Shown piece after piece: positions 22,232-31,001 of a stretch of DNA of 64,000 nt. Below the pieces are notes generated by a model. It saw nothing but the letters and a program-made list of their open reading frames with translations. It did no database searches and was not told the DNA's origin. Where the stretch lies: assembly GCF_056712565.1 (NCBI RefSeq), contig NZ_CM160072.1; one strand, 5' to 3'. The translations under genes were made by a program, and so were the position numbers. How positions within the stretch are numbered: the first letter of the stretch is position 1; each line of letters opens with the position of its first letter.

Positions 22232-22702
22232 TTAGAAGACATCGGATTGTGCATACTGACTAAAGAGATCAATGATTTTTTGCGGACTCGTCTCAACTAA
22301 CAATTGTTCTATGATGTCATCATCCGCCAGCGCGCCCGCGACCTGGGAAAGTAAACGGATATGGGTGGTATTTTGATCTTCAAGACGTACCGCAAATAAA
22401 ATAATACAGCGCACGCTACTGCCATCCAGCGTTTCCCAGGGAATATCCTGGCGGGTACGGCCAATTGCCAGCGTAGTATTAATCACAGCTGAAGATTTAC
22501 CATGCGGGATCGCAATATGATTTTCAAAACCAGTCGAGCCTTCCGCTTCGCGCTGCCAGACATCTTTAATAAAGGTTTCCCGACAATCGATCGCACCATC
22601 TTTTTTGAGAAGATTAGTTAATTCTTCAATCGCCTCCGCTTTATTCGTCGCTTGCATATCTAAAATAACGCGATTCGTATTCAGGATTTTTGTTATGTCC
22701 AT
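22232..22702 (-). CDS. PTS fructose/mannitol-family EIIA
   Basis: 156 aa; IAIPHGK phospho-histidine motif. Confidence 0.8.
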   Translation of the reverse strand: MDITKILNTNRVILDMQATNKAEAIEELTNLLKKDGAIDCRETFIKDVWQREAEGSTGFENHIAIPHGKSSAVINTTLAIGRTRQDIPWETLDGSSVRCIILFAVRLEDQNTTHIRLLSQVAGALADDDIIEQLLVETSPQKIIDLFSQYAQSDVF

Positions 22703-22728
22703 TCGTCATACCTCATAAAATTCTGACA

Positions 22729-24282
22729 TTAAATTTCAACGACCCGAGACGTCGCATGATGTAATTTTTCCGTAATCACCATTTCAGTGACCCGCTTAAT
22801 ATCGGCATCATTAAAAAAAGCGGTAACATAAGCGACCGGCATAGTGACTGTAGGCAAATTAATGGTCGAAATAATCAGTTCGATATTGTCAGGCAAAACC
22901 TGTGATAAATTCGCTGCTGAAATAACATCAACAATCGTCCATTCAGGAAATGCTCGCAGAATACGGCTTTTCAGTAGATGCGAAGTTCCGATTCCGGTTG
23001 AACAGACCAGTAATACACGTTTACGGGCAATTTGCCGCTCCATCGCAGCCTGAAAATGAACGGTCAGGTAACCCACTTCATCCTCGCTCACTGCATTCTC
23101 ACCCCAGGTTTTAAATACCTGATTCACCACATATTGCGTCAACCGCCAGACATCCGCTAATTCTGCTTTAATATCTTCCAGCAATGGATTACGGATATGA
23201 ATGCGATAATTTAGACGGTTAATCAGCGGCTTAATATGCACCAATAAGCCATCATATAATGCGCTGTCTTCACTAAAATCGCAGTCCACGATGTCACTGA
23301 ATACCGTAATTAAACGCCAGGTAATCAGACGCGCTTCATTGCTGGCCTGCATATGTGAAATAATGCTAACATCTTTTTGTCCATCAATCGCCACACCTGA
23401 TGAAATGATATATTGATAAATAAACCAGACTTCATCATCGGGCAATGTATGTGCAATTCGTTGTTCTATCTTATGAATCATCTGACTGGCAACATTAAAG
23501 ATATTTTCATCATATTGTCTGGTTTGATCTTCTTCTCTTGATAACGCATTCCCGTGCGTGTTGCGATACATCATAATAAGGATGTGAGTAAAAATGTTAA
23601 CGTAATAAGGTTCTCCCAAAGACCAACTTAATTCATTTTCCATATCCAGTAACAATGACTGGACAAATAACACCTCTTCTTCTCCAAAATAATGGACTAA
23701 TGCTTTATAGCTTCCGGGATCCAGACGTGAATACACGACACCTTGCGGCTCATTATGGTTAATAATGCCGTTAATCAGTAATGCCATTGCCTGTCGGACT
23801 TGCCCTTCACTACCTTCAATATGCGTACCACTTGGACTGCGGATCAACGATAACCCCAACGGCGCAAGCCAGGACTCAATTACTCTCAGGTCATTAACAA
23901 TAGAGGCTCCGCTGATAAAGTAGCGTTCTGACAATTTACTGATCGACGTTTCATTCGGTGTTTCACTTAATAACTGCGACGCTATTTTAACGCGCCTGGC
24001 ATTATTCATTACACCATCAATCTCTTCACATTCTGCCACCAACAAATGATCAAGATGCAGCAAATCAGCAATATTCTCCGCACTTAACATCACACCCGCG
24101 CCAGCACGCTTCTCAACATTTATTCTCCATTGTCCCAGCCATTGCTCAAGTAAACGTAAATCACGTTGAATGGTTTTTTCCGAAACATTTAAATAGCCGG
24201 CAATCGTAACAATAGTCGTATATTCCCTTCGAGGTAAAAGGAATCGTAATAATCTGTTTTGTCGCGAGGTAATCATTTGCAT
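22729..24282 (-). CDS. PRD-containing transcriptional regulator of PTS operon (Mga/MtlR-like; HTH + PRD + EIIB-like domain)
   Basis: 517 aa; N-terminal HTH, central PRD-like region, C-terminal CSTGIGTS EIIB-like motif. Confidence 0.75.
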   Translation of the reverse strand: MQMITSRQNRLLRFLLPRREYTTIVTIAGYLNVSEKTIQRDLRLLEQWLGQWRINVEKRAGAGVMLSAENIADLLHLDHLLVAECEEIDGVMNNARRVKIASQLLSETPNETSISKLSERYFISGASIVNDLRVIESWLAPLGLSLIRSPSGTHIEGSEGQVRQAMALLINGIINHNEPQGVVYSRLDPGSYKALVHYFGEEEVLFVQSLLLDMENELSWSLGEPYYVNIFTHILIMMYRNTHGNALSREEDQTRQYDENIFNVASQMIHKIEQRIAHTLPDDEVWFIYQYIISSGVAIDGQKDVSIISHMQASNEARLITWRLITVFSDIVDCDFSEDSALYDGLLVHIKPLINRLNYRIHIRNPLLEDIKAELADVWRLTQYVVNQVFKTWGENAVSEDEVGYLTVHFQAAMERQIARKRVLLVCSTGIGTSHLLKSRILRAFPEWTIVDVISAANLSQVLPDNIELIISTINLPTVTMPVAYVTAFFNDADIKRVTEMVITEKLHHATSRVVEI

Positions 24283-28579: not shown

Positions 28580-28674
28580 GGAAGATCGTCGTCTCCGGTG
28601 AGGCGGCTGGACTTCAAATCCAGTTGGGGCCGCCAGCGGTCCCGGGCAGGTTCGACTCCTGTGATCTTCCGCCA
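28580..28674 (+). tRNA. selC: tRNA-Sec (selenocysteine tRNA), 95 nt
   Basis: Sequence GGAAGATCGTCGTCTCCGGTGAGGCGGCTGGACTTCAAATCCAGTTGGGGCCGCCAGCGGTCCCGGGCAGGTTCGACTCCTGTGATCTTCCGCCA read directly; matches E. coli selC from memory. Confidence 0.95.
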
Positions 28675-28726
28675 AAATGCCTCTCCTGAACTCTCCCGAC
28701 GTCAACAACACTCCTTCGGAGGCGAC

Positions 28727-29764
28727 ATGTCAGACAAAGACTTAACCCAGCCCCCAGCAGGCGAGTTTATTATGTTTGCCAGCGGTGACGGAAGAGTGCG
28801 TGTTGAATGTCGCTTTGAGTCAGACACAATCTGGTTATCCCAGGCGGCAATGGCTGAACTGTACGATAAAGATGTTCGCACTATTAACGAACATTTAATC
28901 AATATATTTTCCGAAGGTGAACTTGTTCAAAACTCAACCATCCGGAAATTCCGGATAGTTCGCCAGGAAGGAAAACGTCAGGTTTCCAGAGAGATAGACC
29001 ATTACAACCTCGAAGCCATTCTCGCTGTCGGCTATCGCGTTCGCTCGCCTCGAGGCACGCAATTCCGCCAGTGGGCAACGCAGACGCTTCAGGAATACCT
29101 GATCAAAGGTTTTGTGATGGACGATGAGCGGCTGAAGAATCCGCCTGTCGGTTCATCGGTTGTGCCCGACTATTTTGATGAGATGCTTGAACGCATCCGC
29201 GATATTCGCGCCAGCGAGCGTCGGGTATATTTGCGGGTGCGGGAGATCTTTGCTTTAGCTGCCGACTATCAGCCATCGCTTAAAGAAACCACGCAATTTT
29301 TTCAAACCATCCAGAATAAACTGCATTTTGCCTGTACCGGGCATACCGCTGCGGAACTCATCCACAAACGAGCAGATGCCAGCCAGCCGCACATGGGCTT
29401 GACCAGTTATAAAGGTGAAGAGGTACGTAAGGGCGACGTGACGGTGGCAAAAAATTATCTCACCCAGGATGAGGTCAGCGAACTTAATCGCGTGGTTAAT
29501 ATGTGGCTGGACTTTGCCGAGGATCAGGCCCGTCGTCGTCAGCAAGTCTTTTTGCGCGACTGGCAGGATAAGCTGGATCAGTTCCTGCAATTTAACGACC
29601 GAGAGGTTCTACAGGGCGCTGGTAAAATCAGCAAGAAAATGGCCGATGAAAAAGCGCAGGCGGAGTATGTTCAGTTTGCCGAACAACAACGGCGCTTAAA
29701 AGAAGCCGAAGGCGAGAAGGATATCGCTGGTTTGCTACAGTGGAATAAAGAGTCGAAAAAGTAG
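28727..29764 (+). CDS. RhuM-family (virulence protein RhuM-like) protein, 345 aa
   Basis: N-terminal region ...IWLSQAAMAELYDKDVRTINEHLINIFSEGELVQNSTIRKFRIV... resembles RhuM family as I recall it; RhuM is selC-linked in Salmonella SPI-3. Confidence 0.65.
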   Translation: MSDKDLTQPPAGEFIMFASGDGRVRVECRFESDTIWLSQAAMAELYDKDVRTINEHLINIFSEGELVQNSTIRKFRIVRQEGKRQVSREIDHYNLEAILAVGYRVRSPRGTQFRQWATQTLQEYLIKGFVMDDERLKNPPVGSSVVPDYFDEMLERIRDIRASERRVYLRVREIFALAADYQPSLKETTQFFQTIQNKLHFACTGHTAAELIHKRADASQPHMGLTSYKGEEVRKGDVTVAKNYLTQDEVSELNRVVNMWLDFAEDQARRRQQVFLRDWQDKLDQFLQFNDREVLQGAGKISKKMADEKAQAEYVQFAEQQRRLKEAEGEKDIAGLLQWNKESKK

Positions 29765-29875
29765 CCCGGAATCCCCCCAAACGCCATACGCAAAACCATT
29801 TGGGGGTACTTATGGGGTTACTCATTTATCAAATTCAAAATATAAACATTAAATCAATAACTTAACCATCAAATG

Positions 29876-29903
29876 CGACTCCTGTGATCGCCAAAATGCC
29901 TCT
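29876..29903 (+). repeat. Direct repeat of selC 3' end (att-like scar)
   Basis: 28 of 32 positions match the selC 3' end plus downstream flank, with a 4-bp gap. Confidence 0.6.
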
Positions 29904-29971
29904 TCAGTGATCCCCATCCTGCTTATTTCTGAGCAACCTGACCCTGCTGATGTATCTGGTAGTATGACAGA

Positions 29972-30193
29972 GTGATTCGTTTTTCTTGCCGAGTGTACGA
30001 AAACGTCTTCCTTGCCACCGACTATCAACCGTCACTCAAAAAAACCTCTCTTTTTTTCAAGCTATCAAGAATAAGTTGCATTTTATCTGCACCGGACACC
30101 AGCCATCCATATATGGCTTTTACCTGCTACAAAGATGAAGAAGTGCATAAATGTGATGTTAAAACAATCAAAGAAAAATTACATGCGCAATAA
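29972..30193 (+). pseudogene. Decayed fragment of a second RhuM-like gene
   Basis: Translation ...FLATDYQPSLKKTSLFFK...YMAFTCYKDEEVHKCDV... parallels residues ...FALAADYQPSLKETTQFFQ...HMGLTSYKGEEVRKGDV... of the intact copy. Confidence 0.45.
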
Positions 30194-30333
30194 TTTCACT
30201 ATAACATTATAATCCATGGTGAAAATAACACTGCACAAGGATTGTCATCATCAAACTCATCGGAACTATTTTTTCTGTCGTCATTGGTGTAATACTGATT
30301 GTAAGTATCCTTTCAGGAGATTATTTTTGCCGT

Positions 30334-30832
30334 GTGGGGCATGGAACTTGTAAAGCAGCCAAAAGCGCTAGGCATTTAATTGAAAGTAAAGAGAAAAACA
30401 GAAGTAGTCGCGTCAAAGTCTTTAGCACGCATATTAATTTGAGTCATCCAGCGGCATCCTGGCTAGCAACTCAAACTTGCGCTAACAATATATTCAATCT
30501 GCTTCAAAACAATAATGCCATTTATTTATTCAAAAACGATAATAAAATTGAACTGCGAATGGGGTATGATTCTTTTTTCTCTATTGAAACGATTGATAAA
30601 ATTAACAAAGAAAACATCAAAGAAATAAAACTAAAAAATGATACAACATATGTTTCTCTTCCTAATCCAACCATTTTAATAACCAACGACATCAACACCT
30701 GAACGACAGTTTTCTATTTCTGTTCTGGATGATGATAACAAAGAAAATCTACCTACCGATACCGCACCTTGTTTTACAATTGGTATTCCTGATGAATATA
30801 CTAAAGCCATAGAGTTATTGAACATTAAATAA
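30334..30832 (+). pseudogene. AT-rich hypothetical ORF apparently disrupted by a +1 frameshift near 30700 (122-aa frame then about 40 more codons in the next frame)
   Basis: Two adjacent open frames of similar AT-rich, Asn/Lys/Ile-rich composition; no family recognised. Confidence 0.3.
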
Positions 30833-31001
30833 TTAAATTTCATATTGAGTTTTTTTAAACACCATATGAATAATTGTTATATGTCATTATTTCCTCCATT
30901 CACTAAAACTGATTGATTACTCTACTCCCTCACCGTCATCGGTAGTGGTATCCTTAACGTATATTGATGAAAAGACAAAACAGTATGCAGAGGGAAAAAT
31001 G

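Follow-up and report, generated by a model that had tools for sequence, protein, structure and literature searches.

Large genomic islands with a P4-type integrase occupy selC, the gene for the selenocysteine tRNA (tRNA-Sec), in Escherichia coli. The 52-kb resistance island of MDR_56 is one example, and pathogenicity island I (PAI I) of strain 536 and the locus of enterocyte effacement (LEE) are further large islands integrated at this site. Salmonella pathogenicity island 3 (SPI-3), in which rhuM was named, also lies at selC, and rhuM belongs to its variable selC-proximal part. Proteins with a RhuM domain constitute PDC-S05, a single-gene phage-defence candidate in PADLOC. Another related class is that of the cis-mobilizable elements (CIMEs) described for ICESt1/3 of Streptococcus thermophilus, which are att-flanked, deletion-derived and devoid of recombination genes. 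Here, a stretch of 64,000 nt from contig NZ_CM160072.1 (assembly GCF_056712565.1; hereafter the window), which matches the chromosome of the E. coli type strain ATCC 11775 at 100% identity, was analysed around its selC gene. An islet at 28675-29903, directly behind selC, contains a single intact rhuM gene. It is likely the fossil remnant of an island specific to selC and belonging to the P4-type-integrase CbtA/DUF4942 ('CP4-like') family, and its anatomy and history have been established by sequence comparison.

The islet and the large selC islands of E. coli share the site, the core repeat TTCGACTCCTGTGATC, attR, the flank and the arms. In contrast to them, the islet measures 1.2 kb and not tens of kilobases, bears a single gene, has a truncated left arm and is not atypical in base composition; it also lacks the integrase that its relatives carry next to the tRNA gene. 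CP4-like islands are characterized by the order antirestriction-RadC-CbeA/CbtA-DUF5983-DUF4942, and rhuM stands right after DUF4942 in those of Salmonella (L098; loci are cited by their L numbers), a metagenome (L097), Serratia marcescens (L028) and Serratia symbiotica (L071). The same right arm and attR are found within ~115 nt of rhuM in the first three, and the attR core ~80 nt after the gene in L071. Remnants of DUF4942 persist upstream of rhuM in E. coli E69 and in Escherichia albertii, while nothing of this module is left in the window. As for SPI-3, the rhuM island of L098 is followed by EcpR-, MisL- and MarT-type SPI-3-like genes, whereas E. coli has neither mgtCB nor misL here. Like CIMEs, the islet is flanked by att sites, lacks recombination genes and appears to be derived by deletion; nevertheless, its integrase-side arm is nearly gone and its attR is altered, so that mobilisation seems doubtful.

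The att repeat and the island arms

The only tRNA gene that ARAGORN detected in the whole window is selC (28580-28674, plus strand, anticodon TCA), which is annotated as tRNA-Sec in RefSeq NZ_CP033092.2 and whose 3' end serves as attL. The islet starts within the last 22 nt of this gene. Two plus-strand copies of a direct repeat were delimited, namely attL (28653-28684), which consists of the core CGACTCCTGTGATC, TTCC and GCCAAAATGCCTCT, and attR (29876-29903), in which the identical core is followed by GCCAAAATGCCTCT without TTCC. The exact 14-nt block CGACTCCTGTGATC is located at 28653-28666 and 29876-29889, and the exact 15-nt block CGCCAAAATGCCTCT at 28670-28684 and 29889-29903. A first-pass annotation, made from the sequence alone, had proposed an imperfect copy of the selC 3' end matching at 28 of 32 positions; this count is correct, the difference being a gap of 4 nt (TTCC) rather than mismatches. 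Its assumption that the similarity exceeds chance also holds for these direct repeats of the tRNA 3' end. Each block occurs at only these two sites in the 64 kb when one mismatch is allowed, with chance expectations of 0.01 and 0.00, and none of 100 shuffles gave two matches. Moreover, the alignment of the selC 3' end to 29876-29903 is the top match in the window, scoring 45 compared with 28 for the best unrelated site.

The same attR closes large islands in other strains. In MDR_56, a tyrosine integrase and an island of ~52 kb lie behind selC; the island harbours resistance genes, Ag43, antirestriction, RadC, CbeA/CbtA and DUF4942 and is closed by the same TTCC-less copy. The large islands of CFSAN067215 and E166 are closed by this attR copy together with its flank. 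When the empty site expected for the backbone of the window was searched as a synthetic junction, the matches in 536 and CFT073 began at the same attR copy and ran through the same flank; the empty site itself was found in 0 of 5,426 complete E. coli genomes, the sample used throughout for this species. Window and MDR_56 are 100% identical from the core outwards and only ~77-80% identical just inside it, which is the pattern expected of different elements occupying one att site. Judged by these alignments, the downstream repeat is a real attR of selC islands. The earlier view of it as an att scar is thereby confirmed, with the addition that, in other strains, selC islands with an integrase end on the right at this copy.

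Both ends of the islet are homologous to those of integrase-bearing members of the family. The left arm (28675-28717, plus strand) is truncated to 43 nt, which align with the sequence between selC and the integrase of MDR_56, E69 and Hafnia in pairwise as well as multiple alignments. The right arm (29765-29875, plus strand) shares 77-80% identity with the right ends of E. coli islands that carry an integrase, and its ~110 nt align across genera, including Yersinia, Hafnia, Morganella, Providencia, Proteus and Salmonella as well as E69. Right-arm-like sequence is present in 1,599 of the 5,426 E. coli genomes. A motif of the form TTGGGGG-N5-6-GGGGG occurs once per right arm, ~75-80 nt before the attR core, and once per intact left arm. 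It reads TTGGGGGTACTTATGGGG in the right arm of the window (29800-29817), and the left arm of the window breaks off before it. Further sites lie at ~8270 in L004, ~345 in L015, 4696 in L017, 11074 in L028 and 13726 in L088, and the left-arm copy of L017 is placed ~112 nt after selC. These motifs may represent integrase arm-binding sites.

Copies of attR were compared among the window, L014, L015, L028, L033-36, L042, L074, L080, L087, L088, L097 and L098. In the selC island family the 14-nt core is nearly always exact, with one mismatch in Serratia Ag1 (L027), and the sequence right after the core is variable in length. It is 4 nt short in the E. coli backbone of the window, Morganella, Providencia and Proteus, 3 nt short in the B strain and 1 nt short in E69, Serratia, Atlantibacter and L097. 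Among the copies examined, only that of Salmonella L098 and the middle att site of E69 are without shortening, and these two rule out the loss of TTCC as a universal, element-borne feature. The shortening could point to a deletion hot spot at the strand-exchange site or, alternatively, to the survival of 'locked' islands, because an island excising through the core would deprive selC of part of its acceptor stem.

Decay of islands at selC

The islet encloses one gene. Located at 28727-29764 on the plus strand, rhuM encodes an intact protein of 345 amino acids (aa) from an ATG start, is annotated as a virulence RhuM family protein (WP_001280586.1) and begins after a 52-nt spacer behind the end of selC. 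The list of open reading frames (ORFs) contains no other ORF between the two repeats, hence no integrase, and neither an integrase nor setC was found between selC and yicL in the window. Thus, the tRNA gene followed by a single 345-aa RhuM-family gene (ARAGORN, the ORF at 28727-29764 and Pfam PF13310), the lack of both an integrase and the setC gene of K-12, all of which had been noticed in the first-pass annotation, stand.

The following history is proposed. The parent island would have entered the 3' end of selC, with rhuM as the last gene before its right arm and attR. An internal deletion would later have taken out the integrase and every other gene, joining 43 nt of the left arm straight to the ribosome-binding site of rhuM at junction 28717/28718. 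What remains is selC with attL, the left-arm stub, rhuM, the right arm and attR. Homology to the rhuM loci of other genera starts at 28718, precisely with the ribosome-binding site GGAGG and its spacer (28718-28726, plus strand).

Relatives at various stages can be arranged around this scheme. Close relatives of RhuM, with 88-94% aa identity, are found in Klebsiella aerogenes, Citrobacter, Enterobacter, Salmonella and others. In a scan of one genome per species, which yielded 80 rhuM loci, tRNA-Sec was located upstream on the same strand in 26 loci and within 520 nt in 13, and no gene separates rhuM from selC in 13 other species. Complete CP4-like islands in Salmonella L098 and metagenome L097 end with CbtA-DUF5983-DUF4942-rhuM (94% aa)-right arm-attR, the right arm lying ~115 nt after the rhuM stop. 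In Proteus hauseri (L088) and Enterobacter (L017), the arrangement is selC-integrase-...-rhuM, and in E. albertii (L022) it consists of selC, a truncated integrase, a truncated DUF4942 gene and rhuM. In the tandem arrangement of E. coli E69, which includes a middle att site, a complete left arm runs straight into what is left of DUF4942, and rhuM (99%), right arm and attR come next. In K-12, a rhuM pseudogene of ~160 nt is located behind selC and is followed by setC; a second att copy was searched for at selC of K-12 and none was found. The B strain carries a newer island integrated ahead of a rhuM remnant of the K-12 type. According to these alignments, the window is the extreme case of a decay series, the next step after E69, and the 'rhuM pseudogene' of K-12 is a dead end of the same process.

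The islets of Morganella, Providencia and Proteus share only selC, rhuM and the right arm with attR, and the cargo in between varies; rhuM therefore seems to behave as a conserved backbone gene of selC islands while other cargo changes. In the 10.8-kb selC island of P. hauseri, two adjoining reverse-transcriptase-like ORFs with YVDD motifs (4541-7655 of L088) lie between integrase and rhuM, and the pair is probably another defence module. Besides tRNA-Sec, the only tRNA seen at the 80 loci was Leu(CAA), which occurs at two loci and is each time followed by an integrase. In these loci (L018 and L020), rhuM (87% aa) lies ~5.5 kb downstream of tRNA-Leu(CAA) and the P4-type integrase is ~44% identical to the one at selC, an arrangement indicating that rhuM travels on leuX-type islands too.

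As an instance of island decay the locus is clean yet ordinary, involving a known kind of element and of gene family. The series from full island to partly deleted island, single gene and pseudogene illustrates the layering at tRNA hot spots. The islet had been described in the first-pass annotation as a minimal one: the absence of the integrase was rightly seen, whereas the islet is apparently no minimal unit and is better described as the deletion stump of a large CP4-like island. Its stump nature, the dead rhuM at selC of K-12, the older rhuM fragment outside attR (see below) and the widespread linkage of selC and rhuM across Enterobacterales go beyond that annotation.

Substitution rates bear on the transfer of rhuM. 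Between E. coli and both K. aerogenes and Citrobacter, the ratio of nonsynonymous to synonymous substitution rates (dN/dS) of rhuM is ~0.05, and by this measure the gene is under strong constraint. Its dS amounts to 0.65-0.81 compared with 1.75-2.4 for the adjacent core gene yicI, and identity at third codon positions is 0.67-0.72 in rhuM against 0.51-0.54 in yicI. The low dS of rhuM relative to yicI indicates a transfer between genera later than the species split.

Within E. coli, the intact islet was detected in 844 of the 5,426 genomes, nearly all at an identity of at least 99%. All 844 carriers have the minimal form in one identical context, with no copy elsewhere. Approximately 3,280 genomes have only the short rhuM remnant of the K-12 type, and ~1,300 have no rhuM match whatever. 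The intact islet is therefore neither universal nor rare, and the earlier supposition that rhuM is not universal at selC is borne out by this survey. Island decay explains the strain-variable selC locus in the E. coli type strain and many other strains. Carriers presumably belong mostly to phylogroup B2, LF82 among them. In two sampled carriers, rhuM differs from that of the window by 2 and 3 substitutions (0.2-0.3%), the first of them encoding an identical protein, and their adjacent AT-rich DNA differs by up to 4%.

Just outside attR, a dead fragment of a second, older rhuM (29972-30193, plus strand) was recognized through repeat families, with ~80% nucleotide identity to the intact gene. 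Its 73-aa ORF matches PDC-S05 (E 7.6e-6), while no match was obtained in NCBIfam or PHROGs. The fragment adjoins attR in all strains with backbone 2 that were examined and is embedded in a segment of 34.8% G+C (29904-30944). Its position outside attR indicates that the site held a rhuM before the present element arrived. A divergent rhuM (75% nucleotide identity) is found in E. coli 1585m1 (7932-8966 of L005), on an element that is integrated beside mnmE and also bears a type I restriction-modification (R-M) system, MobI and an integrase.

The RhuM protein, its expression and its candidate role

RhuM matches the Pfam family Virulence_RhuM (PF13310) with an E value of 5.7e-118 and a score of 393, residues 70-323 covering model positions 1-250 of 252. 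It also belongs to PDC-S05 by a full-length match, since residues 1-343 align with positions 1-339 of 346 of the PADLOC profile PDLC04852 (E 2.8e-173). No match was found in NCBIfam or PHROGs. The family comprises 29,152 representative clusters from all kinds of bacteria, including free-living marine ones, and homologues occur in 51 phage records. Single-sequence and profile searches against solved structures returned only noise (E >0.6). Residues W36, R161, N197 and N243 are invariant, and S163, E164, K242 and Y244 are nearly so. An AlphaFold (AF2) model based on 53 diverse sequences reached a predicted local distance difference test (pLDDT) score of 90.8 and consists of a beta/alpha head at the N terminus and, after it, a long body of helices. 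In structure the model comes closest to DdrC of Deinococcus and to small winged-helix DNA-binding domains, and among viral models to Bro-N/KilA-N/antirepressor-like proteins. DdrC and the phage Bro-N/KilA-N antirepressor-like proteins are alike in fold yet have no detectable sequence similarity to RhuM. For the RhuM-specific domain at the C terminus, no counterpart of known function was found.

By analogy with a studied homologue, the most likely role of RhuM is phage defence as a single-gene system. On E. coli B, a RhuM-domain protein of PDC-S05 from a cold seep was reported to reduce plating ~1000-fold for T7 and T5 and ~10-fold for T4 (bioRxiv 10.1101/2024.09.26.614923, preprint). An odds ratio of 14.4 was reported for the enrichment of RhuM near inversion-prone type I R-M loci (PMC9881135), and rhuM is directly beside HsdR in L005, L045, L052, L061 and L079. 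Together with the PDC-S05 match, these phage assays and neighbourhoods support the link to type I R-M loci and defence that had been suggested in the first-pass annotation. The Bro-N/winged-helix head might bind DNA as a sensor, and the conserved helical body might perform the effector step. The islet is a natural minimal chromosomal copy of PDC-S05/RhuM in a host that is easy to work with and for which K-12 supplies a natural null, and thus offers a convenient entry to the function of a very large protein family.

How the gene is expressed in the islet is suggested by what its upstream region has lost. Other genera and E69 have a conserved element, CTGGCATACTACGT, ~45 nt ahead of the rhuM start (at ~5950 in L009, ~675 in L015 and ~7950 in both L097 and L098), and it may be the native promoter of rhuM. 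This element is deleted in the window. In the 52-nt spacer between selC and rhuM, no promoter-like site, terminator-like site or stable hairpin was found. Since the spacer has no promoter and the native upstream region is lost, rhuM would be transcribed by read-through from selC or be silent.

Several observations weigh against the reading of the islet as the stump of an island whose last gene serves in phage defence. In the complete E. coli collection, this backbone never carries the whole parent island with this rhuM, so the parent is deduced from other genera and from E69. The G+C content of the islet (48.8% versus 50.9% for the window) is unremarkable. The carriers are so much alike, at an identity of at least 99%, that an intact ORF says little about selection within E. 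coli, and with its upstream region lost, rhuM may be silent. The fold search revealed no enzymatic homologue of RhuM. Protection against phage is known for one distant cold-seep homologue only and extends to the RhuM of the window by analogy. Furthermore, the Salmonella literature calls rhuM a virulence gene.

Some of these observations would be accommodated if rhuM were a silent relic on its way to a pseudogene as in K-12, intact only since the deletion that removed its promoter is recent. We regard this as rather unlikely, though less so than the other alternatives. The native upstream element is gone, ~3,280 genomes retain a dead fragment only, the older rhuM outside attR is dead too, and the near identity of the carriers implies that little time has elapsed. 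On the other hand, the end point of the deletion coincides with the ribosome-binding site; the ORF is undamaged and starts 52 nt after a tRNA gene that is strongly transcribed, and no terminator separates the two. The two sampled variants have only 2 and 3 substitutions, with an identical protein in the first, while the adjacent DNA differs by up to 4%, and the same position directly after selC is taken by rhuM in the 13 other species.

Another possibility is that RhuM is not an anti-phage protein and acts as a virulence or host-interaction factor, or as a regulator of the island in the manner of an antirepressor. The listing of rhuM under epithelial migration in the Salmonella literature speaks for the former, and both the fold resemblance to phage Bro-N/antirepressor-like proteins and the behaviour of rhuM as a conserved backbone gene amid variable cargo suit the latter. 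Nevertheless, this appears unlikely. A family of 29,152 clusters that includes free-living marine bacteria is an ill fit with a host-specific role, and a regulator would have been kept after the island machinery to be regulated was lost. The enrichment of RhuM beside type I R-M systems and the phage protection by a homologue also count against it.

About equally doubtful is a bolder extension of the anti-phage reading, according to which the pairing of selC and rhuM is a selected module and not debris, and RhuM is a Bro-N-type DNA-sensing anti-phage effector of a mechanistically undescribed kind. Under this scheme rhuM would repeatedly have been the sole survivor of selC-island decay across Enterobacterales, and its resulting place next to the tRNA gene could let the tRNA promoter drive it by read-through. 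In most of the attR copies examined, the displaced tRNA end has lost 1-4 nt of the acceptor stem; if an island excised through the core, selC would be broken, and rhuM would thus be locked in place.

Mobility and surroundings of the islet

The stump is probably immobile, because it has no integrase, its left arm is without the TTGGGGG...GGGGG motif, and attL and attR differ by 4 nt beside the core. Alternatively, the islet might be non-autonomous yet mobilisable in a CIME-like manner, as a minimal rhuM vehicle that could be excised and moved by the integrase of a related island if one inserted at selC beside it in tandem. The islet retains the two att copies as well as a right arm that is well conserved and bears the putative integrase-binding motif, related integrases are common at selC in E. 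coli, the low dS of rhuM between genera shows that the gene does move, and E69 exhibits a tandem with a middle att site. Against this, the left arm amounts to only 43 nt and lacks the motif of intact left arms, and attR has its 4-nt deletion right after the core relative to attL. The 844 copies in one identical context, at an identity of at least 99% and with none elsewhere, fit vertical descent. Mobilisation of the islet is therefore considered very unlikely, and an immobile stump is preferred.

Hardly any credence is due to the idea that rhuM was a neighbour of selC on the ancestral chromosome and that the repeat is a chance or slippage duplicate unconnected with an island: although rhuM follows selC in many Enterobacterales, the repeat exceeds chance and bounds integrase-bearing islands, the flanking arms are homologous to island arms and the dS of rhuM is far below that of neighbouring core genes, so that the comparisons of island boundaries, arms and dS already refute it.

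The local gene order of the window is yicI, yicJ, selC, rhuM, a hypothetical ORF, yicL and nlpA. The hypothetical ORF (30334-30702, plus strand, 122 aa), taken from the ORF list, is part of the older AT-rich layer and lies outside the islet proper. A 1-nt insertion at 30685 shortens it from the 165 aa seen in MDR_56 and Ecol_867 to 122 aa, and no family match was found in Pfam (searched with the 165-aa form), PADLOC, NCBIfam or PHROGs. To the left of yicI, at ~22400-24282, the window carries a BglG-type antiterminator and phosphotransferase system (PTS) genes as in Klebsiella and Citrobacter, where K-12 has yicH.

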